NCBI RefSeq assembly: GCF_011745625.1
Contig: NW_027191498.1
Span: 114,416 to 134,415 of the forward strand
Direction: 5' to 3'
Length of the DNA stretch: 20,000 bases
Source of the DNA: Cladosporium halotolerans
Taxonomy: Eukaryota
Both the position numbers and the translations under genes were made by a program. Positions 1,588 through 18,044 of this stretch are shown one piece after another. The stretch's first letter is position 1; each line of letters starts with the position of its first letter. The notes beneath the pieces are model-generated. The model was not told where the DNA came from and ran no database searches. It was given only the letters and a program-made list of their open reading frames with translations.

Positions 1588-2026
1588 CTTTGGAATGGGG
1601 TTTGAATCAAGAGGTTTTATTTATTTGGCAGGCTGATACTAAAGACAGATCAGGCAAAGCACATATCAGTGATCGTCCGTACACGTGAGTTTGGAATAGG
1701 GGAAAACGGGAGATATATGAATGCGTAATATGATGACCAATGACATAGCTAAGGGATATATAGATAGATTACAGAAAATTGCCAGATGACACTGGCGAAG
1801 ACCAATCGCTCGGCGCCGAAGAGACTGTCGGCAGCCCAAATAAAGCATGATGCAAAGCGCATCCGTCGAATTCGTACACGTCTGTGTGTGAGATCGCTGA
1901 AGAGCGGTTGTTGCGATTGCTGATTCCCCGAGCTACGCTCTACGCGGCGGGGATGGTGGCAATCGGTTGTTCGTGTTGCAGTGAGCCCTTGTGCTCCGAT
2001 GTTGTTCCTCCTTTCTTGCTATGCAT

Positions 2027-3445
2027 TTAAAGGACGTTGCCGGTGACACCATCGGTGACGCCGGTGACCTTGTCAAGGGAGAGGCCCTCGAGGATGTCGC
2101 GCTCGGAAAGGCCGATAGACTTGGTGAGCTCGTCGATGGAGAGGTTCTCCAGCACGTCGCGCTTGGAGAGGTTGAGGGACTTGGTGAGCTCGTCGACGGA
2201 GAGGTTGTCGGTGATGGAGCGCTTGACAATCTTCTCGATGGTGCCCATGACGTCGCTGACATCGACATCAGCGTTGACGGCGGAGCGCCTGACAAGGCCC
2301 TCAACGTCGCTGACGACGCTGCCAGCGGCACCAGAGTTGAGGTCGAGGACGCCGCTGTTCTCGCGCTTGACAAGATCATCAACCTTGTTCATGAGGCCAC
2401 CGACGGTGCCGGAGTTCAGGTCGAGAACATCGGCGTTGTCACGCTCAAGGAGGCCCTCGGCCTTGTCAACAACACCGCCAACGGTGCCGGAGTTCAGGTC
2501 AAGAGCGTCAGAGCTGTCGCGCTCGAGGAGACCCTCGGCCGTGTTAACAACACCGCCGACGGCACCGGAGTCGAGGTCGAGAGCATCGGCGTTGTCACGC
2601 TTGAGGAGACCCTCAGCCTTGTCAACAACACCACCAACGGCGCCGGAGTTCAGGTCAAGAGCATCAGCGTTGTCACGCTCGAGGAGACCCTCGGCCTTGT
2701 CAACAACGCCGCCAACGGCGCCGGAGTTGAGGTCAAGAGCATCAGCGTTGTCACGCTCGAGGAGACCCTCGGCCTTGCCAACGACACCGCCGACGGCACC
2801 AGAGTTGAGGCCGAGCACGTCGCCGTTGTCACGCTTGAGGTTGGTGACACCGAGACCGTTGACAGCGCCGCCAACAGTGCCGGTAACGCTACCGACAGTC
2901 TCGCCGAGACCGAGGTCACGCTGCTTGAGGTTGGTGAGACCGAGGCCGTTGACGGTGTCCTTGACGCCGCCGACAGTCTCGCCAGCCTCGCCGACGACAC
3001 CACGCTTGAGGTTGGTGACGCCAAGGCCGTTGACGGTGCCGGTGGCAGTGCTGACAACGCCGTCAACCGTGCCGCCGAGACCGATGTCGCGCTGCTTCAG
3101 GTTGGTAAGGCCAACGTTGTTGACGGTGTCCTTGGTGTTGTCGACGGTCTGGCCGACGACGCCACGCTTGAGGTTGACACCACCGACGATGCCTTCGGCC
3201 TCATTGACAACGTTGTTGACAACACCGGCCTGGCGCTTGAGGTTGCCGAGGTTGACCTTGTCGACGGTCTCCTGAGCCGTGTTGACAGCGTCGCCGGCAA
3301 GGCCACGCTCGCCAACGACACCCTCGAGGTTGACGAGGCCGGTGACATCGTGGACGGCACCGCCAATGACGCCGCTCTCCTGGCGCTTGGTCGGCAGGGC
3401 CATGGTGGCCGCCGTGAGGGCAAGGGTGATGAAAGCGTACTGCAT
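2027..3445 (-). CDS. Secreted Kex2-processed repeat protein (KEP-type multi-peptide precursor), 472 aa
   Basis: N-terminal signal peptide MQYAFITLALTAATMA followed by LPTKR. Then 18 segments of 20-29 aa, each preceded by KR, RR, ER or KQR. Codon usage is strongly biased (mostly C/T-ending). No introns are needed. Confidence 0.9.
   Translation of the reverse strand: MQYAFITLALTAATMALPTKRQESGVIGGAVHDVTGLVNLEGVVGERGLAGDAVNTAQETVDKVNLGNLKRQAGVVNNVVNEAEGIVGGVNLKRGVVGQTVDNTKDTVNNVGLTNLKQRDIGLGGTVDGVVSTATGTVNGLGVTNLKRGVVGEAGETVGGVKDTVNGLGLTNLKQRDLGLGETVGSVTGTVGGAVNGLGVTNLKRDNGDVLGLNSGAVGGVVGKAEGLLERDNADALDLNSGAVGGVVDKAEGLLERDNADALDLNSGAVGGVVDKAEGLLKRDNADALDLDSGAVGGVVNTAEGLLERDSSDALDLNSGTVGGVVDKAEGLLERDNADVLDLNSGTVGGLMNKVDDLVKRENSGVLDLNSGAAGSVVSDVEGLVRRSAVNADVDVSDVMGTIEKIVKRSITDNLSVDELTKSLNLSKRDVLENLSIDELTKSIGLSERDILEGLSLDKVTGVTDGVTGNVL
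2030..2218 (-). repeat. Coding tandem repeat, about 3 x 60 bp (20 aa, x[I/V]x[D/E]xLSxDx[L/V]T)
   Basis: KEP residues 410-472: SITDNLSVDELTKSLNLSKR / DVLENLSIDELTKSIGLSER / DILEGLSLDKVTG... Confidence 0.85.
2285..2830 (-). repeat. Coding tandem repeat, 7 x 78 bp (26 aa, consensus DNADALDLNSGAVGGVVDKAEGLL[E/K]R)
   Basis: Direct reading of KEP residues 206-387. Central units are near-identical and the end units are more diverged. Confidence 0.95.
2831..3163 (-). repeat. Coding higher-order repeat: two copies of a two-peptide unit (GVVG...LTNLKQR + D[I/L]GLG...NGLGVTNLKR)
   Basis: KEP residues 95-205, segments of 25, 29, 28 and 29 aa in an A-B-A-B arrangement. Confidence 0.85.
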
Positions 3446-4986
3446 TATGTAAAAGAGTGTATGTGTAAAGAGTGTAAGAGTTGGTAAAAGAGAGAAGAAT
3501 TAGACAGTTGCTTGTAGTTGTACGGTGGTGGTGGAAGGAAAACAGCTTTCAGTGAGGGCGACAATCAGTTCATATACGACTGCACCTTGCGGTGATCCTT
3601 GATTGTTGCCCCCTCCGTGAGCCTTCAGGCGCCGACATGGTCGAGTCAGCCTTGAGCCCAGTTGGTCCTGAAGATATGGATTTACCGTTGCAATCTACCA
3701 AAAGATCTACATCCAGGGTGTTGTGGACAGTAATGATCTTCGTGTAACGGTGCTTGACTTGGTCCGTTTACTGCCAAAGCACAGGTTAGCGGAGTATAGT
3801 CAGGTCCTGGTGCTCGAACTAGAGGCACGGTGCGGACCTGGGGGCCTTGCGTGCGGCATTCTCCAATGACATTATTTGTTTGCAACGTCGTCGTAGTTGC
3901 TACTCCTGAAGAACGGTGGACTAGCACGGCTGTGTGGAGCACTGTCGACGAACGATCGCAATTCTCCCACCTTGTCAGGTACAAGGCTAGTGGAGTGAGG
4001 AACATGACTCCAGATTTTGATCGAGCATTGTGTTGAAGTGCGATTTTGATATCTTGGTCCATGTGAGTGCCATGTGAGCGGAACGCAAGGAACTCTTGTC
4101 TAGCTTTGACACAGTCTCGCAGTGTTTGAGACAAATCCCGTTTGTAGCGACATAGAATCATGATCAAGCCAACTTCTTCATGTGCATGGGGTGCCTGACA
4201 GGAGGGATGGTGTGAGCACCATGCTGGGGCCGCGTACCCACTCCGCCCGGGCCGGGTCACTACTAGGGCTTAACCTCAAGTAATCCTGGGGATCTTCGGA
4301 CTGGCGGCCGGCGGTCAGTGTAGTGCCGAAGTTCGGGGTGGTTCGGTCTGTATTGTGCGCTCTGCTGGTAGGAGAACCTGACAGCTATGTGTCATATCGA
4401 ATTCAAGACCTTGTCGAGGGCAGGCGGTCTCTGCGTAGATCCTAGTCTTCCGATACATCCGGGGCAAATCCCAGTACGTAGCCATGTCAGCTCTGCCATG
4501 GAGTACGTAGAACCGACGATGTGGACAAATCCTGGAGCAGTGGATAGCATCCCATGTTGACTGGGCGATACCGCCACAAGCACTTTGCGTCCCCATCTGT
4601 GCGAGTCCTGCGGGCTGAAGATGCAGGTTTCACCAAACGTGTTCGCTGCCACGCTAAGATCTCCAGGGCGAACGGTTTTGACGGCTCAATTTCTCCCAGC
4701 CTTTCAATGATGCCCTTTTGGTGTTGCTGTGCCCCCGAGTTACCTGTCACAAAACCATAGTGTAGGATTCAGCCCTGATAATGTATCTTACGCCTGTTCT
4801 GCATTAGCCATGTGCAGTACTTCGATAGAACCACTCAGCACAATAATTTGTCAATCAACCCTGTGCAACTCACTGCGGACGCTGTCCGTGCCCATGATTC
4901 GTGGCCTGCCAGCGTGGCTGGAGCGTGCAAGCCGTGACACGTCAAAATCTCCGCTGGACGGGCGAAGATCGGCCTCCGGACAATGC

Positions 4987-5208
4987 CAGCCCGTCGTTCA
5001 TCCGAAAGTTTGAGGTCTATGAGGTCCTATGATAGAGGTACCATATCTGAATATACCTTTTCTCCGTATTAATAAAGACCTTTAACGTACTACCTTCCCC
5101 CTTAGACGATTAAGACCGATTTTCTACCCGGAGGGTCTAGATATTCACTATACTCGGACACGTCGTGGTCGACTAAAGCCTGCAAACTTTCGGATGAAGG
5201 GTGGGCTG
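4987..5208. mobile_element. Putative MITE-like non-autonomous element or transposon relic, 222 bp
   Basis: Inverted repeats at 4987-5012 and 5183-5208 match at 23 of 26 positions, with a perfect 16-bp core TTCATCCGAAAGTTTG (4997-5012 / 5183-5198). They enclose an AT- and TpA-rich non-coding interior. No target-site duplication found. Confidence 0.55.
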
Positions 5209-5899: not shown

Positions 5900-7347
5900 C
5901 TACTCCAGCTTAACCAACCAACCATCTCCCTCCCTCTCGCCCTTGGCATTCACGCCACCCCAGATCATGATAGTAGCGCCATCTTTCAGCACATCACACC
6001 CAAATGACGCACGAGGCCCAGGATGGACCTTGCCAGCCTCACCATCACCCAGCTTCTCCAGCGCAGGCGGCTGAATGTCGACTTCAGCCCAGGCATCGGT
6101 TCCAGTGTCCGCCTTGAACGCAGACCGAATGCTATCCTTGATCGCGGCGGGGCGAAGAGTCTCGGACCATGAAGCCTTGCGACCTGGTGTGACCGAGGGG
6201 AGCTGCAGAGTCCAAAGGTCAGGGTATTGAGTTGGCTCGGAGGATGCTGCCGGCTGCGATTCGGTGGCAGCTGCGGAGGAGTCTGAAGCAGAGGGTTCCT
6301 GAGCGGACTTGCTCTCTGCGCCGGATGGCGATGCGCCGAAGAAGTGCAAGAGGTAGTGTCGTCCGTGTCCGGTTGTCATCGGCAGCAGGCCGCCGGCGAC
6401 GCGCGGTTCGGGCGATGAAACCAATGGATTAGTGGGGAATGAGCGAGTCGTCCAAGCAGAAGGGCTCGAGGGATTGATGGCTGATGAGATAGGCAAAGCA
6501 TGGACGTAGCCACTCAAGCCATCGGTATCAGGGCCGATTACGAGAAGCCAGAGTACACCGGTAGCGAGGGAAGCGTTGGTGTTGGCCTGGGGAGCGTCTG
6601 GCAAGCGAGTCCATGTCTTGTTTGCGTACGAGAAGTGCCACGTATCTTTCAAGGGCTCGCCAGTCTTGCCGAAACCACCATGCAGAACAAGGTCGTTGTT
6701 GCAATCAAAGAGCTTGCCTTCCGTCCTAGGTTCAGGGACCTCCTGCTCGCCCAGCTTAGGGCCGATGAACTCCCAAGTCGACTTTGCGGTGTTGAACAAC
6801 CAAATACGACCCTTCTCGTCAATGGCATCGCCCTGCGCATCACGACCACTGAATACGGCGACGCATACGTTGAAAGCGCATGCTGCATGTCTGGTCCTGG
6901 CTACAGGGACGCTGTTTGAGTCGTCTTCCGAAGCAGCTGGTGCCTCGCCACCTGTCGACCCTGCTGGTAACGCCGGCAAGAGAGCATACTGTGACTCGCC
7001 TTGCTTCTCGAGCTCTTCGGACGAGAGCAAAGAGATGACGTGGATTTCCGTCGTAGCGAGCTGACTCTCGCCGGTCTCACCGCCAAAGATGAATGCCTTG
7101 TCCCCAACAATCGTCAAGCTATGATTCGACCTGGCGAGCGATGCTCTGAGATGGATCAGCGAACGCACTCGAACAAGATGTGGGATCCATATTACCTCGT
7201 TTCGTCATCCGGTGCTGATGCGATCTGAGTGAACGTTCCTTTCAAGGGCATTGTCGGTTGTGACACCATGTATGCGGCTACACCAGCTTGAACGCCAGTC
7301 GAGACGACTTCTTCAGCAGCCCATGCCCCGGCTGCTATTTCCGCCAT
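5900..7347 (-). CDS. Kelch-repeat beta-propeller protein, about 465 aa. Exons 7347-7196 and 7145-5900
   Basis: Kelch motifs ARSNHSLTIVGDKAFIFGGE, ARTRHAAC, LVLHGG..DTWHFSYANKTWTRLPD, HPGPRASFG..IMIWGG. The true start MAEIAAGAWAAEEVVSTG is joined through a 50-nt intron 7195-7146 (GTAATA..GCTGAT..CAG) that restores the frame. Confidence 0.88.
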
Positions 7348-8006: not shown

Positions 8007-10718
8007 ATGGCGGCTCCTCAAGTCGCTCGCCCGGCCCCAGCGCCTCGCCGTCGCGACCCTCCTCGACCTTCAATATCCACCAAGCGCAGCGCTCCCAGCG
8101 ACTCTGCTGCCCCAGACCAAATAGCGAAAAAGCGAAAGCTGAGCGAGCCATATGTCCGCGATAGCCAATACATCCTGCGCAAGCACAAAAACAAGCCACC
8201 GTCCCTGGTCATCCACCTTCACCCTACCCATTTTCGCTTCGAGAACCAAGATGGCAGCTTCGCCTACGACTCGCCAATGCGCTTTGTGCTCCAGCACCTC
8301 AAGCGTCAGACTGTGCCACACGAAATACTGGAAGATCTGCTGGCGGCGAAAGTGCAGTTTTACGACGGATGCCTAATTGTGGAAGTACACAACCATCGCG
8401 GCGCTGGAGGGAAGAAGCAGGGCCCACGGGATAAGAGCGCAGACAAGGACAAATTCTCTATGCACGGCTACAATGAGCATATTACACCCTCGCCTTACGC
8501 ACCGTTTCCTAGTAAGGAGCAAGCTGCTGCTGAGGCGTACACACCGGAGAAAGCAAGTGACAATACGCCAGAGCGCCCTAAAGGTAGCGAAAAGCAGGGT
8601 CCGCGCGTCTCGACAATCGTGTTGCATCCTACCGAGCAGACCAAGCATGAAGAAGTCATGATTCTCGCTCGCACCCCAATGTCAGAAATTCGGAAGAACA
8701 AGAATGCAGGTGATTCAACGGCATCAGATGCTCAAGAAGGTGGCTCACAATCGAAAGCGCCGACGACACCTGGGGCGGCTTCAATTTCACAGTCGGAGAA
8801 GATGGCTATGGACCAAAGCGAACTTTACAGCTTCCAAGCTGAGCAGCTCGTCACGACTGAGCCACCTCTTTGTTTGGATGTCGCAAAAGATGCGGAAGAG
8901 TCTCAGGCCATCCTAGACCTTCTTGCTCACCCCTTGCACTCCGGCCAGCCGCCTGCACCAAGAGAGCGGAAGAGAACTACAGCAGAAATGGCTGCCGACG
9001 ATGCACAGGCGGCTGAGGCTGAGCGTAGAATGCTCATCATGGACGAGCGCATCAAGCCTTCAGCACGGACTGCTGCCGGCGCTGCAGCAAGCGACAACCA
9101 ATCAGCTGCGGCGTCCCTTGGTTTCTCGCGCTTCAAGACGATTGAGATGGTCCGGCAAAATCACGAGAAAGCCGAGCGCGAGAAGAAAGAGGAAGAGGCT
9201 CGCGCGGCCGTGGAAAAACGGCAGTTCGAGGAGCAGGCAGCACAGCAGCAGAAGATGCTACAGGCACAGAAGCAACGCGAAATGCTGATGCAGCAGCAGC
9301 ACCTCAAGCAGAGACAAATGGCTGCACAACAACAAGCCGAGATGTTACGCCAGCAGCAGATCTCGCAGCAAGCCAACATGATGCAAGGTCATGGGCACCC
9401 GGGCCAGAACAACATGATGCAAAACCAGCAGCAGGGCAATTTCCAAAATCCCCAGATGGCTGGCGTGCAAGGAAGCCCTGTGCCTCGGCAGCAATCGCAG
9501 ACGCCCATGATGCAGTCAAGTCCTATGGCTCAGCAAGGTGGCTTCCCTATGGCGCCACAGGCTTCAAACACTGGTGCTGGAAGCCCACCTCGTCCGGCTT
9601 CCGCTACTATGCAGCACCCGGGAGTGGCAATGGCAAGGAATGCAAGCCAGCAAGCTTCAGGCAGCCGCAACCACACCCCTCAGATGGCAAACACACCATC
9701 CATGGCTCAAGCGATGCCAGGGAGGCAAACTTCTCAGACTCCGCGCATGCAGCCAGGCAGCCCCGCTGTGGGAATGGCGCAGAACACACCGAATGGCCTC
9801 ATGATGCAAAACGGTGGTCAGAACTTGACGCCCGAGCAGTTAGCTCTGCTTCAGGCGCAGAGAAATCTGAACTCGGGCCAAGGTATGATGCAGGCCGGCA
9901 ACGGAGCAAGCATGACCCCACAGGAAATCCAATTCACTCAACAGATGGCGAGACTCCAATCATTGCGGGCTCAGAGCAGTGCGCAGTACCAGCAATTCAA
10001 TGCCATGGGTGACCCTGCGCGTGCGCAACAAGAGCGACAGCGTATCATTACGATCAGTCAAAACATGAAACAATTGCAGCAGGCGCATGCGCAAAGACAA
10101 ATGGCCGGCAATGCTGGCAGTCCAGGCATGGGAATGCAGCAACAGACGCCACAAGTAGGACACGCCCACCCTGGTATGCAACAGCAGGGACAGCAACAAG
10201 GACAGCAGCAGGGTAATAACATGCTACACCAGCAGCAAGCAATGGCCCAGCAACAATTCGCTCAACAACAGCGACAAGGTCATGCACAGCTGCAAGCACT
10301 TATTCAGCGCCACGGTGGAACCATCCCTCAAGACGTTCTTGCCACGATGCCTGCGCATCTCAAGTCGCTTTTACACCAACAGCAAATGAAGCAGCAGCAG
10401 GCGCGAGCCCAAGCGCAAGCTCAGGCCCGGATGCAAGGTCAGCATCAACAGCAGCAGCAACATCAAGGTGGCCAAGTTGGAAACGAGCAATACGTGCAAC
10501 ACCTACAGCGCATGCAGAATCAATTGGGTATGCAGATGGGGCAACCGCAACAGCAACAGACTCCTGGAGGCAACATGGGCATGCAAATGGGCATGAACAA
10601 CATGCAGCAGTTCGGTGGTCAACAGCAGCAGCAAGGCCAAGGCCAAGGCGATCCGCTTCAGGCACAATTTGCGGCTATGGCAAACGCTTTGCAGCGGGGC
10701 GGGCAAGGCATGCAGTAG
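8007..10718 (+). CDS. SPT20: SAGA complex subunit Spt20, 903 aa, with a long Q/M/G-rich C-terminal half
   Basis: Spt20-family domain signature PPSLVIHLHPTHFRFENQDGSFAYDSPM...FYDGCLIVEVHNHR...TIVLHPT...EPPLCLD, followed by a low-complexity glutamine-rich region. Uninterrupted ORF. Confidence 0.9.
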   Translation: MAAPQVARPAPAPRRRDPPRPSISTKRSAPSDSAAPDQIAKKRKLSEPYVRDSQYILRKHKNKPPSLVIHLHPTHFRFENQDGSFAYDSPMRFVLQHLKRQTVPHEILEDLLAAKVQFYDGCLIVEVHNHRGAGGKKQGPRDKSADKDKFSMHGYNEHITPSPYAPFPSKEQAAAEAYTPEKASDNTPERPKGSEKQGPRVSTIVLHPTEQTKHEEVMILARTPMSEIRKNKNAGDSTASDAQEGGSQSKAPTTPGAASISQSEKMAMDQSELYSFQAEQLVTTEPPLCLDVAKDAEESQAILDLLAHPLHSGQPPAPRERKRTTAEMAADDAQAAEAERRMLIMDERIKPSARTAAGAAASDNQSAAASLGFSRFKTIEMVRQNHEKAEREKKEEEARAAVEKRQFEEQAAQQQKMLQAQKQREMLMQQQHLKQRQMAAQQQAEMLRQQQISQQANMMQGHGHPGQNNMMQNQQQGNFQNPQMAGVQGSPVPRQQSQTPMMQSSPMAQQGGFPMAPQASNTGAGSPPRPASATMQHPGVAMARNASQQASGSRNHTPQMANTPSMAQAMPGRQTSQTPRMQPGSPAVGMAQNTPNGLMMQNGGQNLTPEQLALLQAQRNLNSGQGMMQAGNGASMTPQEIQFTQQMARLQSLRAQSSAQYQQFNAMGDPARAQQERQRIITISQNMKQLQQAHAQRQMAGNAGSPGMGMQQQTPQVGHAHPGMQQQGQQQGQQQGNNMLHQQQAMAQQQFAQQQRQGHAQLQALIQRHGGTIPQDVLATMPAHLKSLLHQQQMKQQQARAQAQAQARMQGQHQQQQQHQGGQVGNEQYVQHLQRMQNQLGMQMGQPQQQQTPGGNMGMQMGMNNMQQFGGQQQQQGQGQGDPLQAQFAAMANALQRGGQGMQ

Positions 10719-11975: not shown

Positions 11976-14281
11976 ATGCGGCTTCAAACCTTGTCCACAG
12001 CGGCCTTCGCTGTTCTCGCCTCTGGAAGCTGGACAAAGGTATGTCAAAGTGGAATTGCTTGGAAAATCGCCATTTGTAACTCTGTTTTAGAACATCAACT
12101 ACCGCTCTCCATCCGAGCACCATCCAGGCCTCGGCGTAGCTCTCCACAAAGTCAACAAACGCAACACGCCCGAGAAGAGCTTCAAACCCTCAGACCTCAG
12201 CTTTACTCATGGAGTAGCGTCTGGTGATCCGTACTCAGACTCTGTGATCCTCTGGACTCGCGTGTCGCCACAGTATGATTCCGTCGACGACAATGGTCCT
12301 GTTACAGGCGATGTCCCGCTCTACTGGCACGGCCCTGAACAGACTGTTTCTACAGCACCAATTTGCGTAGACTACCAAGTCTCTCCTACAAAGGATTTCG
12401 CCCAGGTAGTAGACAGTGGAAAGGCTTACACATCCAGCGATGTGGATTATACGGTGAAAGTCGAAGCCACCGGCTTGGAAGCCTTCACTCGCTACTACTA
12501 TCAGTTCAGTGTTTGCGATAGCAATAACACCAGCCCAATCGGCAGGACGAAGACGTCGCCTGGAGTAAATGACGATGTTAGCCAGGTGAATCTGGCTGTG
12601 TACAGCTGCGCCAATTACCCTTTTGGATACTTCAATGCATACGGAAATCCCGTCCGAAAGGACAGTGTTGACTACGTCGTTCATCTGTAAGTCTTCGTCA
12701 GCCTGAACGTAGCCTCCAATACACACTAACCAGCCCATCAGAGGTGACTACATTTACGAATACCGTGGCAACGGCGACTACGGCAACGGAGCGCCCATCG
12801 GCCGCATCCCCAAACCCGAGCGCGTCATCCACACCCTCTACGACTTCCGCGAACGCTACGCAACCTACCGCAGCGACCTAGACCTCCAGCTGTCCCACCA
12901 AGCCTTCCCCTGGATCCCCACCTGGGACGACCACGAAGTCGCCGACAACACCTACCGCGACGGCGCCGCCGACCTGGCCAACAACGAAGCCTCGTTCATC
13001 AACGACGGCGGCTTCTCCATCGACCAGGTGAAGATGAACGCAGTCCGCGCCTACTTCGAGTGGATGCCGATCCGGCAGGTCGAGATGGACGACAACCTGC
13101 GCATCTGGCGCTCCTTCAGCATCGGCAAGCTGTTCGACCTGATGATGCTCGACACGCGGCAGTACGACCGGTCCATCACCGACCTGTACTGGAACACGGA
13201 CTACATCCACGCGATCGCCGACGACGCCGGGCGCACGATGATGGGCTCGCGGCAGGAAAACTGGCTGTACAACGAGCTCTCCGCCAGCGCCGCGCGCGGC
13301 GCCGCCTGGCGCCTCGTCGGCTCGCAGACCGTCTTCGCGCGCCTCAACCAGTCCATCGTCTACGGCCCCGGCAACCCCTACAACTACGACCAGTGGGACG
13401 GGTACGAGGCGAACCGCAACCGCACGCTGCACCACCTCGCCCGCAACGCCATCGACAACACCATCGTGCTCTCCGGCGACAGCCACGCAAACTGGGTCTC
13501 CAACCTGCTCGGCGACTACGGCGACCCGGGCTCGCACCTCGGCGTCGAATTCGCCGGCACGGCCATCACCTCGCCCCCGCCCGCGGGCGAAGCCTCCGTG
13601 CCCGCCGCCAACCGCGAGAGCGACCTCTTCTCCGCGCACAACGCGCACCTGCACTGGAACGAGATGTTCTACCGGGGCTACTTCGAGCTGCGGATCACGG
13701 CCGACGAGCTGCGCGCGGCCTTCTTCGGCCTCCCGGACATCCGGACGCGCAACGCGCTCGAGATCCCGCTGGCGAACTTCAGCGTGCGCGCGGGCGAGAA
13801 CCGGCTCGCGGAGCCCGTCGGCGGCGGCAGGGCGGAGACGGGCTGCCTGAAGGGCGGCGAGGTCGCGCTGAGCTACCTGACGAACGACACGGAGACGGGG
13901 CAGTGGTTTGTGGGGGAGCCGAGCCAGGTGAGTGCGAGCAACAATGCGTCTGGTGCGTCTGGTGCTGCTGTTGTTGGTGCGGGGACGAATGCGAGCGGCG
14001 GGGTGTGGTAGGCCCCCACCCCTGGGTTCGCTCTGGCCTTGTTCGTTTGCGACAAGACCGTGTGGATAGATGCGTATGGCTACGCTTTCTTTCGACCAAA
14101 CATGTGTTCTCAGAGAATTTCCGGGCTGACGTTTCTGTGAAAGCCTGTTCCTCACGCCCTCTACTGGGTTCTCGCCGCCGGAGCGGGGATCGTGGCCGTG
14201 ACGATCGTGCTCAGCTTTGCCATTACGTGGTCGACGAGGAGAGCGAGATATATGGTTCTTGATGGCGAGGATTCCGGCTAG
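11976..14281 (+). CDS. phoD: PhoD-family alkaline phosphatase. Exons 11976-12038, 12091-12686, 12742-13927, 14144-14281 (660 aa, C-terminal TM helix); an intron-retained form would stop at 14011 (642 aa)
   Basis: Signal peptide, then motifs FTHGVASGDP..VILWTR, GRTKT, AVYSCANY..GYFNAY, HLGDYIYE, WDDHEVADN, LDTRQY, DQWDGY, LSGDSH. Introns 12039-12090 (GTATGT..TAG), 12687-12741 (GTAAGT..CTAAC..CAG) and 13928-14143 (GTGAGT..GCTGAC..AAG) are all phase-consistent. The last exon is less certain than the family call. Confidence 0.92.
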
Positions 14282-15552: not shown

Positions 15553-18044
15553 CTACCTGAACCTGGCGGAGCAGCGGCCCATGACCTCGCCCTGGCAGAC
15601 GAGTTCGGCGTTGAATTCGGAGCCGTCGAGGGTGAGGTAGATGTCGAAGTAGACGCGGTAGAAGGTGCCCTGCGGCGTGTCCATGCGCTCAAAGTCCTTC
15701 TCGAGGTTCTTGCGGCTGAGGTCGGAGGTGAGGGTGACAATCTCCTTGATGCCTGTGGAACGGTCAGCGTAAAATCTGGTGGTCGAGTTTTGAAGGTGGG
15801 AAAGCTTACGAGGATCCTTGGTGTATTCTGGGCAAACGTCCTCGTCACAAGCGTAAAGCACATCCTCATACATGAGCGTTGCGCCAGGCGCCACCTGTCG
15901 GAAGAACGAGACCTTGACCGGCTCGCCGATCTTGACTCTCTGACCCTTCTGCACGAAGATCTGGCGGGTGTATTTGCACCTGTCTTTTCCGTCGAGCGAC
16001 GGCACACGGTACTGCTCGGGGTGGTGGCCCTCTTTAAACGGTTGCAGGGTTGCCATGAGGTAGTGGCGACGTGCAACACGGGAGGTGATGACACGTTCAG
16101 TGATACCGGCTGTGACAGCGCCCTTGACAATGGCGGCGACGGAGTCCATGGGACGGACCACCTTGTTCTGGAACTGCGGAGGGACGTGCAGCTTGATCTG
16201 CTGGAAGAGGTATTCTGAAGCACCGAAACCACCAACAACCAGGACGTTCTGTGAGGATGAAGTTAGCGACCTGTATCCTTGTAACTTCAAAAGCAATTTG
16301 ACTTACCTGCAGAAGTCTGTTCTGTGCCTGGATGGCAATGATCTGGTTGCGAACAAGCTCCAAGATTCTGTTAACCACAGGCTCAAAGCACTGCAGGATC
16401 TCCTCGTTTGTGAAAGTCATGTATCCTTCCTCGATTCCAGCTTCGGGGAATTCGGCTTCGATGCCCACATCAACGGCCCACTTCTGACCGTTATTCCTGA
16501 AGTCGGCCTTGATCCTGTTCTCAAAGTCCATGATACACTTGGCGTACACCTTGCCAGCGGTCTTTGAGCCATCCGGCAGCTTCATCTTGCGAATCTTCGC
16601 GCGGAGAATGTTGGAGAAGTTGCGGTTCAGCGCCGTAGAACCGCAAGAGTCACCGGAACCTGCTGTGCACTCTGCGACTGTGAAAGGCGACTCTTCCTCA
16701 ACTTCGTAGGCGATCAAATCGACAGTACCACCACCGCAGTCGACGATGAGGATGGCATCGTGAACCTTGAGGTTGAGCAGGCCAGTCTTAGCGCAGAACA
16801 TGGCAGCGGCTTCGGGTTCGGTGATCAAGGTGAGGCGGTTGTCGTTCTCGTCGCGAAGAAAGCCAGCCTGGATGGCGGCGGCTCTTGTCGCAGCCTTGCC
16901 AGCATCGTTCCAGATAGCAGGCACAGTGAGGAAGTAGCGAATGTTGCGCTCCTCGCGGTTGAATACCTCACCCAAGCTCTTCTGCAGCTGGTTACGCATT
17001 GCCTGTCGTAACTTGAAGAGGTAGTCGGCCGCGACATCGATTTCGGACTTTCCAGGAGGAAGCGGGGGGAGGTTGATCGGATCGATGTAGGTGTTGCCAG
17101 AAAGCATCAACTGCAACTTGAACCACTCCACCTTTTGAACACCGGGCTTGGGGTAGCCAGTGGGTGCAAGCGCATCCGCAATGTCAGGGCCCCAGCCGAC
17201 GACTTGCTGGTGCTGGTCGTAGTAGAGGACGGTGGGAATCTGCAAAATATTTGAGTTAGCGCATGTTGCACGACTGAAATTGCTTGCAGTGATACCTTCT
17301 GCTTCGTCTGTGTGCCTGCGCCAGGCCACTCGACGATGATATCCTCTTTGGCCTCGGTGTTTGTGGCGAAAGCAAAAGCGACACCGGAAAACGTCGTGCC
17401 CTGTGTCAGATGTCAGCAAAGTCCTTTCTTGCGATCGACCATACTTTACGCACGAAGTCAATGCCGACGATCAACTGCGCCTTGCTCCGGTTGTTCCCCT
17501 CGACCTCCGCCAAACTTCTTCCATACAGAGGGTTGGTGGATTGCGGCGCGCCGTAGCCGTAGGCTTGCTGTTGCTGCATCGGATAGCCCGGCGGGGCAGG
17601 CGCCTGCTGACCGTACATGTGCTGCTGGTGCTGAGGCGCGTACGCGTGTCCGCCGCCGGTGTTGATGGGCGGCGGCGGCATTGGGCTCGTGGGCCTGCCC
17701 TGGTTAGGATGGGGTGCGCCGAGGTTGTTGCCCTGGTTAGCATACTGGTACGACGGTGGCCGACCGAGCGGCTGCTGGGGGTTCATGTTGAGCGAGGTGG
17801 TGGAGGCTGACGCGGCCGGCGCAGTGGAGGTGGACGACGGCGGCTGGTGGGAGGAGTTGTTGGAGGCGAGGCTGTTGGTAGCGGACGAGGTGCCGTTGGA
17901 GGCAGAGGCAGAGGCGGCGGGGGCGCTCGGGGTGAGGGTGCTCGTGGAGGCGGTCTTGGATGTTTGCTGGGGCGCGGGCTTGTCGCTGCTCGGTCTGCGG
18001 GTCGAGCCAACTAGTTTGCGGAATCGGGAGTTCATGGAGGACAT
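15553..18044 (-). CDS. Hsp70-family (HSPA12-like) actin-fold ATPase, about 755 aa. Exons 18044-17454, 17400-17296, 17239-16307, 16248-15810, 15752-15553
   Basis: Motifs LIVGIDFGTTFSGVAF, KIPTVLYYD, LTVPAIW, LITEPEAAA, IVDCGGGTVDL, VLVVGGFGASEYL. Four GT-AG introns of 53-58 nt give a total CDS of 2268 nt, divisible by 3. The start (MSSMNSRFRK) is the least certain part; the N-terminus is S/P/Q-rich and probably disordered. Confidence 0.92.

Follow-up and report, generated by a model that had tools for sequence, protein, structure and literature searches.

Two surveys, Le Marquer 2019 and Umemura 2020, define Kex2-processed repeat proteins (KEPs) by a signal peptide, at least four fragments delimited by KR or RR, and at least three similar repeats of 8-100 amino acids (aa) that account for 15% or more of its length, in a protein with no membrane anchor (PMC6339444, PMC7329392). 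In one of them, 7878 KEPs are listed from 1345 of 1461 strains (PMC7329392). Processing by Kex2 and Kex1 is established for these proteins (PMC9769878, PMC12153327). The best-known classes are the α-pheromone precursors and the dikaritin precursors, which give peptides made on ribosomes and modified after translation (RiPPs) (PMC9769878). In Candida albicans, other peptides of Ece1 shield candidalysin from aggregating (PMC12153327). The Rep1 repellents of Ustilago maydis are 34-53 aa long (PMC3133707), assemble into amyloid fibrils within the wall, and favor both attachment and the formation of aerial hyphae (PMC3133707, PMC4617103). A function is known for few KEP-derived peptides, and in the literature examined repellents are characterized only from a smut fungus. 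Here we describe P0001, a 472-aa KEP encoded in a 20,000-nucleotide (nt) stretch of Cladosporium halotolerans (assembly GCF_011745625.1, contig NW_027191498.1, positions 114,416 to 134,415, forward strand), hereafter the window. While the precursor kind is common and already known, P0001 represents an undescribed KEP family of Cladosporium-type fungi. Processing of the secreted protein would probably yield between 10 and 18 small acidic peptides, whose most likely destination is the surface of the fungus.

A KEP gene in C. halotolerans

The P0001 open reading frame (ORF) is a real gene on the minus strand. Its features, in window positions, are:

2027..3445, minus: intronless ORF for the 472-aa protein P0001, supported by the lack of an internal stop, by relatives, and by silent differences
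3398..3445, minus: predicted signal peptide, residues 1-16, from hydropathy and the near-identical start in relatives
3383..3397, minus: five-residue pro-piece ending in the first KR; PTKR is present in 8 of 9 tabulated proteins and absent from P0010
2831..3382, minus: A-family units, residues 22-205, seven G/V/T/N-rich units of 23-29 aa
2285..2830, minus: B-family units, residues 206-387, seven units of 26 aa with one LxLxSGxVG each
2030..2284, minus: linker unit and C-family units, residues 388-472, 20-23 aa, rich in Leu and acidic residues
3569..3576, minus: TATA-like box about 130 nt 5' of the ATG, with a pyrimidine-rich leader after it; the same box and distance are seen in 5 of the 5 loci displayed
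1734..3512, minus: approximate transcript extent, a weak hint from the outermost RNA-type contig ends, with the strand taken from the ORF

By inspection, P0001 has a signal-like start with a hydrophobic core at residues 3-15, where the grand average of hydropathy (GRAVY) over seven residues is up to 2.5. A near-identical start is found at all seven metagenome loci described below and in P0002, P0003, P0010, P0023, and P0024. Cleavage of the signal peptide is predicted after Ala16. The GC content at third codon positions (GC3) of the ORF is 0.77.

RNA-type contigs from three studies cover the ORF without a joint. Two are from runs recorded as RNA (X15 and X17) and the third from a run guessed to be RNA (X14). 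The contigs extend over 1734-3512 in X14 and 1756-3496 in X15, which do not give the true ends or the strand of the transcript. An X15 contig skips 403-456, the GT-AG intron of a neighboring S1/P1 nuclease gene, and X15 therefore holds mRNA of the same or a very close organism. Runs X18-X24, with a small or zero share, and parts of the window without RNA cover were left out of the evidence.

P0001 is divided by regularly spaced arginine sites

The 19 arginines of P0001 make 18 sites (nine KR, one RR, six ER, and two KQR), and all 18 lie at unit borders, with Arg found nowhere else in the protein. There are thus 18 segments after the first KR. The nine KR pairs compare with a mean of 0.97 and a maximum of five in 5000 shuffles of P0001. 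The sites are 20-29 aa apart, and equal regularity was reached in none of 20,000 random placements. Leu or Val directly precedes the pair, or the KQR, at 14 of the 18 sites. Past residue 21 there is no Cys, Pro, Phe, Tyr, or Trp in 451 aa, and the net charge is -30. The segments fall into an A family of seven divergent units, a B family of seven 26-aa units, a C family of three units of 20-23 aa, and one linker unit; Tandem Repeats Finder reports periods of 78 and 60 nt in the region. An earlier note on this DNA, made from the sequence alone, had described such a precursor. Its site counts behind a signal-like start were exact, and its account of the preceding aliphatic residues, the missing residue types, the acidic segments, and the three repeat families agrees with ours.

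The sites differ along the protein. In order, those of the A family are ER, KR, KR, KQR, KR, KQR, and KR, and those of the B family are ER, ER, KR, ER, ER, KR, and RR. Eight of the 18 borders are therefore non-dibasic. Cutting everywhere would give 18 products of 18-27 aa. Cutting at the 10 dibasic sites alone would give 10 products of 18-76 aa, four of which measure 43-55 aa, and the B region would leave as peptides of 76, 76, and 24 aa with three, three, and one motifs; the masses calculated for the two 76-aa peptides are about 7.4 and 7.6 kDa. The eight non-dibasic sites all have Leu or Val at P4, and seven have Asp at P1'. The extended Kex2 motif is described as having an aliphatic P4 and as including Glu in the five residues that rank next at P2 (PMC8528282), and Kex2 has an acidic P1' preference (PMC2515848). 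The context of these sites is consistent with both. The sites were copied from a small number of ancestral ones and do not count independently, so this agreement is a matter of consistency and not a test.

We give moderate odds to the eight ER and KQR borders being weak or slow Kex2 sites. The likeliest outcome of Kex2 cleavage would then be a mixture of peptide lengths. Relatives too have non-dibasic borders, with QAR and VQR, and ER in P0023 and P0024. One homologous site is KR in P0025 and P0026 and QR in P0002-P0004. The "up to 18 peptides" of the earlier note stands as an upper bound of 18 segments, but with 8 of 18 sites non-dibasic, and with orthologues predicted to give two-motif peptides of about 52 aa, the 24-aa example peptide it proposed may be a minor product. 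Derivation of the ER-ER-KR order from a duplicated 78-aa block is unsupported, since B3 is nearest to B2 (5 nt) and not to B6 (17 nt).

Two further observations concern the repeat region. A low-depth contig from the DNA run X3 has 23 nt in place of 62 nt at 3259-3322, a net change of 39 nt that keeps the frame. The replaced stretch lies around the first ER site, inside residues 42-63, and the contig may derive from a related species or strain whose unit is shorter. The C-family region of P0001 also has three N-L-S sequons that are not kept in relatives; N-glycosylation sequons are present in one of seven proteins and thus are not a family feature.

P0001 relatives retain the KR sites and a paired motif

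Sequence searches found the full-length relatives P0002, P0003, and P0004, the fragments P0010 and P0011, and the distant forms P0023 and P0024. P0004 is the Cladosporium allicinum hypothetical protein KAM0690906.1. A metagenome scan added seven loci (L001-L007) with P0001 relatives. In L001 and L003 the same S1/P1 nuclease gene as in the window lies downstream; the five other loci stop inside the repeat gene or no more than about 400 nt from it. The three indexed searches scored about 8000 candidates and were length-limited, so the family range given here is a lower bound; a third profile search found no new relatives beyond the earlier ones. Seven of 10 matches (P0005-P0009, P0012, and P0013) were dropped as repeat-inflated and without the signal peptide and KR architecture, and P0002, P0010, and P0011 from the same search were retained.

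In eight close full-length relatives, 11-14 of the 13-16 arginines of each protein are in KR. This concentration is strong indirect evidence for Kex2 processing. The B region of the orthologues would be cut almost only at KR, to give 50-56-aa peptides with two LxLxSGxVG motifs each. Two motifs were counted in 37 of 39 such products from P0002-P0004, P0025, P0026, and P0011, and in both exceptions the motif is a variant with V for L. Between relatives, the double units range from five to seven in number. Across 32 aligned B stretches ten columns are invariant, all of them Leu, Ser, or Gly, which points to a constraint on shape. The motif is entirely absent from P0023 and P0024. Cys is absent from all 11 proteins compared, in which Phe, Trp, and Tyr number zero or one; after the first KR there are no aromatic residues in 10 of the 11 and one in P0025. 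The absence of Pro is not a family trait, as 10 relatives examined have four to seven.

The ratio of nonsynonymous to synonymous substitution rates (dN/dS) is below 1 in all six pairs among four loci, from 0.36 to 0.80 (non-B region, crude Nei-Gojobori method). At least 11 strain differences are listed inside the ORF, and of 11 listed, eight are silent and three conservative, with none at a site codon.

The public model of the C. allicinum gene, P0004, appears to begin at the second Met, 16 residues late, and to miss the signal peptide. P0004 and the translation of L004:73-1935 are identical at 597 of 604 positions (99%), and L004 has the first 16 residues. As the model lacks a signal peptide, surveys based on this feature would miss the C. 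allicinum gene. L004 and L005 start about 70 nt before the ATG, and the downstream ends of L004-L006 lie within a few bases of one another, as those of transcript contigs would.

Properties of the predicted peptides

No Pfam family was above the cut-off for P0001, P0004, P0023, P0010, or P0011, in line with the suggestion that the family is uncharacterized. PDB sequence searches with two profiles returned no matches and one match at E 3.3. The ESM Atlas gave one match for P0001 (0.76, to an Ascomycota cluster), below the threshold for a lead, and none for P0004. AlphaFold2 modeled P0001 with a mean predicted local distance difference test score (pLDDT) of 38.0 and an orthologue B region with 37.7. 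In these low-confidence models P0001 has a strand pattern with a 26-residue period at residues 206-387 (pLDDT about 40-61) and helices in the C region, and strands are drawn again in the orthologue. For repeat sequences, the solenoids drawn by AlphaFold2 are reported to be unrealistic (PMC11795689), and for this reason the models were given no weight. Foldseek with the P0001 model found nothing at E≤0.001. Complex prediction with four copies of a 52-aa orthologue unit, run without an alignment, scored 0.02 and is no evidence either way.

Predicted peptides with a net positive charge were absent from eight proteins under either cutting rule. No P0001 segment exceeds a GRAVY of 0.65 and charged residues are found in every unit, so that by composition a membrane anchor is unlikely. 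The maximum among relatives is 1.09, with a peptide at 0.85-1.09 in close relatives. P0001 is 16% Gly and 24% Val, Thr, and Ile, with low helix propensity. A crude aggregation score, without a shuffle control, placed a short hot spot in 12 of the 18 units. A two-residue hydrophobic periodicity was found in none of 10 sets tested.

Possible functions of the predicted peptides

We propose that the signal peptide directs P0001 into the endoplasmic reticulum, that Golgi Kex2 would then cleave after the 10 KR and RR sites, and that Kex1 would remove the basic ends to leave 10 acidic peptides, linear and without modification, of 18-76 aa. Given the established processing of KEPs, we consider these steps very likely. 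Slow cutting at ER and KQR would produce a ladder of one-, two-, and three-unit peptides, the multi-motif forms of which would resemble the two-motif peptides of the orthologues. The peptides, disordered in solution, would become ordered at the interface of wall and air or wall and substrate. There they would assemble into a surface coat tuning wettability, attachment, or aerial growth, as the Ustilago repellents do. Coat assembly is proposed by analogy and is the weakest step. That the whole chain holds, with linear acidic amphipathic wall or surface peptides working like Ustilago repellents without detectable kinship, we judge to have somewhat less than an even chance. The surface-active or self-assembling nature raised in the earlier note remains an analogy.

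We prefer bulk surface material over a signal, a RiPP, or a cytolysin because the copies are many, near-identical, long, free of Cys and aromatic residues, and mildly amphipathic, and because the repeat number is variable. Cladosporium is a dominant airborne mould. A bolder form of the proposal is that the genus independently evolved a repellent-like coat from its own family of acidic Kex2 products, based on an LxLxSGxVG turn motif that assembles only when present in tandem. In the P0001 lineage, the weakening of Kex2 sites from KR to ER or KQR would hold the motifs together, and the efficiency of cleavage would program the block length; this we regard as speculative and rather unlikely. No ascomycete analogue of the repellents was found in the literature searched.

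A number of points count against a surface coat built from such a ladder. The RNA runs were chosen for holding the stretch, and their contigs show neither strand nor expression level. Knockouts of kep genes in Coprinopsis are reported to be without a phenotype (PMC9769878). In four homologue searches no protein named Rep1 or Ustilago appeared, and most matches were nameless. The units B2 (ER) and B3 (KR) differ by 5 nt only, the ER-ER-KR rhythm may be chance (about 1 in 5 given the last KR, with five possible places for the other), and ER and QR may be merely decayed sites. A dN/dS of up to 0.80 shows loose constraint. All predicted peptides are neutral or acidic, down to -13, and the GRAVY maximum of P0001 is modest for a coat that repels water. 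Neither AlphaFold2 model is informative, and both have strands drawn where periodicity suggests helices.

Amphipathicity in P0001 itself is also borderline or absent. The hydrophobic spacing of three to four residues seen by the earlier note is weak here, reaching p<0.05 in 1 of 18 segments. In a non-redundant set of 10 P0001 units, the periodicity near 100° was matched by 63 of 600 shuffles, and that of the C family was equaled by 257 of 600. The corresponding values were 31 of 600 for the A family and 17 of 600 for three B units. The claim is clearer in relatives, where the periodicity is significant in the non-B units of P0002 (4 of 600 shuffles), P0025 (0 of 600), and P0023 (1 of 600).

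It is also possible, if unlikely, that the same Kex2 products form no coat and work outside the wall in soluble form, as acidic and for the most part disordered peptides. They might bind lipids or surfaces, protect against desiccation or salt, serve as carriers, or modulate neighboring plants or microbes. Their net negative charge and mild hydrophobicity suit this role, as do the Gly, Val, Thr, and Ile content, the low helix propensity, and the lack of a confident fold. Other Kex2 repeat proteins, Rsp1/Hum3, act as effectors (PMC4617103). The invariant Leu, Ser, and Gly columns and the fixed two-motif units of the orthologues, however, suggest an ordered state, and with all dN/dS values below 1 no positive selection was seen by the crude method used.

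An ordered state of another kind is pictured if the B region is a multi-coil β-solenoid or β-arch polymer with one motif per coil. The ER borders would keep three coils together, and cleavage would be partial or would only set the size of the building block. The 26-residue strand pattern, the strands in the orthologue, and the two motifs in 37 of 39 orthologue products are in keeping with this idea, and a bacterial-type repeat protein, P0006 (period 53), aligns in register. Yet the strand pattern is of the kind that AlphaFold2 draws unrealistically, two-residue periodicity was seen in 0 of 10 sets, and there was no fold match. P0006 did no better than unrelated ankyrin-domain matches in a permutation control, and P0023 and P0024 lack the motif altogether. 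We consider a solenoid improbable. P0006, considered for what it might say about a β-solenoid, was kept as a lead only, since P0005, P0008, and P0009 pass the same control. P0006 has no Pfam match, its 53-residue two-motif repeat is at residues 204-531, and the register of this repeat with the B units is probably due to chance or convergence.

An arrangement like that of Ece1, in which acidic peptides would chaperone a single hydrophobic peptide that acts on membranes, is very improbable. The architecture is similar, the shielding of candidalysin by its sister peptides offers a precedent, and close relatives have the more hydrophobic peptide noted above. However, P0001 peptides do not exceed a GRAVY of 0.65, no predicted peptide is net positive, aromatic residues are absent, and no single unit stands out as cargo. 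The lack of net-positive peptides also disfavors the membrane-active option of the earlier note.

We find it equally hard to see P0001 as a precursor of α-pheromone-like signal peptides or a dikaritin-type RiPP, even if these are the best-known KEP classes. No DUF3328 was detected with Pfam in 201 ORFs, 118 of them stop-to-stop ORFs of at least 75 aa in the window and 83 in L001 and L003. The scan covered 2 kb downstream in the window and about 8 kb more from the two loci, and short exons could escape it. The units are long and without Tyr or other aromatics. A single X-A dipeptide follows 2 of the 18 sites, and repeated XA or XP follows none. Our results thus side with the earlier note in favoring linear unmodified peptides over a dikaritin RiPP.

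It is scarcely credible that the real gene is not in the minus frame but in the plus-strand ORF 2021-3487 or 2094-3275: both are long open frames, the antisense frame is likewise open in L001 and L003, five of eight strain differences are silent in the 2094 frame, and RNA contigs without strand give no choice between frames, yet the signal-like start, the TATA-like box, and the codon bias (GC3) are all minus-strand features, 8 of the 11 strain differences listed are silent in the minus frame against 2 of 11 in the 2021 frame, and the frame of the public C. allicinum model is of the minus type. The antisense open frames, 2021-3487 (plus) and 2094-3275 (plus), are best read as shadows of a bias for C-ending codons.

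Genes near the P0001 locus

Pfam matches in the window identify six neighboring genes:

1-691, minus: S1/P1 nuclease gene, with the GT-AG intron 403-456 skipped by the X15 RNA contig
1120-1587, plus: GFA-family gene, between the repeat gene and the S1/P1 nuclease gene
5903-7204, minus: kelch-repeat protein
8007-10718, plus: Spt20
about 12091-14011, plus: PhoD phosphatase
about 15553-18044, minus: Hsp70-like protein

L001 and L003 add a major facilitator superfamily (MFS) transporter, a nonribosomal peptide synthetase (NRPS)-type module, a GATA-finger protein, and an M28 peptidase. As the set of added genes is not the same in L001 and L003, conservation of a cluster does not extend past the nuclease. 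The NRPS-type gene (A, PP, and C domains; L001:8593-12102, plus) and the MFS transporter (L001:6145-7290, minus) lie 2-5 kb downstream of the orthologue and are not in L003. With tblastn the GFA gene was not found in any of L001-L007, and the interval is spanned by two of these loci, suggesting a lineage-specific insertion or loss.

Upstream, a 222-bp element at 4987-5208 has 26-nt inverted arms that are 88% complementary, about 1.5 kb from the gene. It shows raised depth and many loose ends in the DNA run X3 and looks like a repeat of the miniature inverted-repeat transposable element type. Conservation with L001, L002, or L007 is also seen in two short blocks, near 3642-3681 (about 40 nt) and near 4624-4667 (about 44 nt), which are possible regulatory elements.

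Comparison with known Kex2-processed precursors

By its sequence, P0001 qualifies as a KEP under either survey, as the earlier note had held; we checked the criteria by hand and not with the published pipelines. It has 10 dibasic sites and as many predicted products, of 18-76 aa. Three dibasic products of P0001 carry the motif, as do six to seven in each of P0002-P0004, P0025, and P0026. The B region alone makes up 182 of the 472 aa. Like the KEPs of the surveys, P0001 combines a signal peptide, many KR or RR sites, tandem units shorter than 100 aa, and several unit types in one precursor (PMC6339444, PMC7329392). It is unlike them in its eight non-dibasic borders, which neither pipeline counts. 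Surveys that count only dibasic sites and rely on annotated starts will miss or miscount such genes.

We also looked for this family in published work. Cladosporium is absent from the Umemura assembly and KEP tables, where the sole matches are to Rachicladosporium, with five stand-alone KEPs. The motifs and the genus name are absent from four Le Marquer supplementary text files, among which the main KEP table may not be included. No paper on the P0001 protein was found in the literature searched, which does not cover most subscription papers, and a preprint using C. allicinum locus tags (bioRxiv 10.1101/2023.09.25.559271) does not have the tag of this gene, Q7P36_009676, in its main text. The allergen Cla h 1, which is uncloned, was considered for a link to P0001, and the idea was dropped after a literature look-up gave nothing usable.

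The dikaritin (ustiloxin type) and α-pheromone precursors resemble P0001 in having KR-delimited repeats after a signal peptide. P0001 differs in lacking an aromatic core, a DUF3328 neighbor, and repeated Ste13 dipeptides, and its units are much longer. Ece1 of C. albicans is closer in some respects, as it too is an ascomycete polyprotein delimited by KR and releases linear peptides of about 20-60 aa. In contrast to Ece1, P0001 has true tandem repeats and no strongly hydrophobic, basic-ended, helical cargo peptide.

Whatever the peptides do, P0001 has KR, ER, and KQR borders next to one another on repeats that are otherwise nearly the same, and this amounts to a natural experiment on the P2 tolerance of Kex2 in a filamentous fungus. 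If the peptides prove to be without a phenotype, P0001 would be one more among thousands of orphan KEPs. It is also a conserved, transcript-supported, and easily deleted Cladosporium candidate for asking if ascomycetes use Kex2-released peptides as a non-hydrophobin coat. Such a coat, if real, would bear on the wettability, attachment, and dispersal of spores.

Rep1 and Hum3 of U. maydis are the comparison on which the coat proposal draws. P0001 is not classed here as a repellent, as homology to Rep1 was undetected among the mostly nameless matches of four homologue searches and fibril formation would be by analogy only. P0001 is from an ascomycete and not a smut, and it has three unit families. 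The long terminal fragment of Rep1 is 228 aa, compared with 23-43 aa for the last piece of P0001-type proteins. Like Rep1 and Hum3, P0001 has the form of a secreted precursor with Cys-free units between predicted Kex2 sites; the units of Rep1 and Hum3 number 10-15 and are amphipathic. The size of the Rep1 products overlaps that of the 50-56-aa peptides predicted from the P0001 orthologues.

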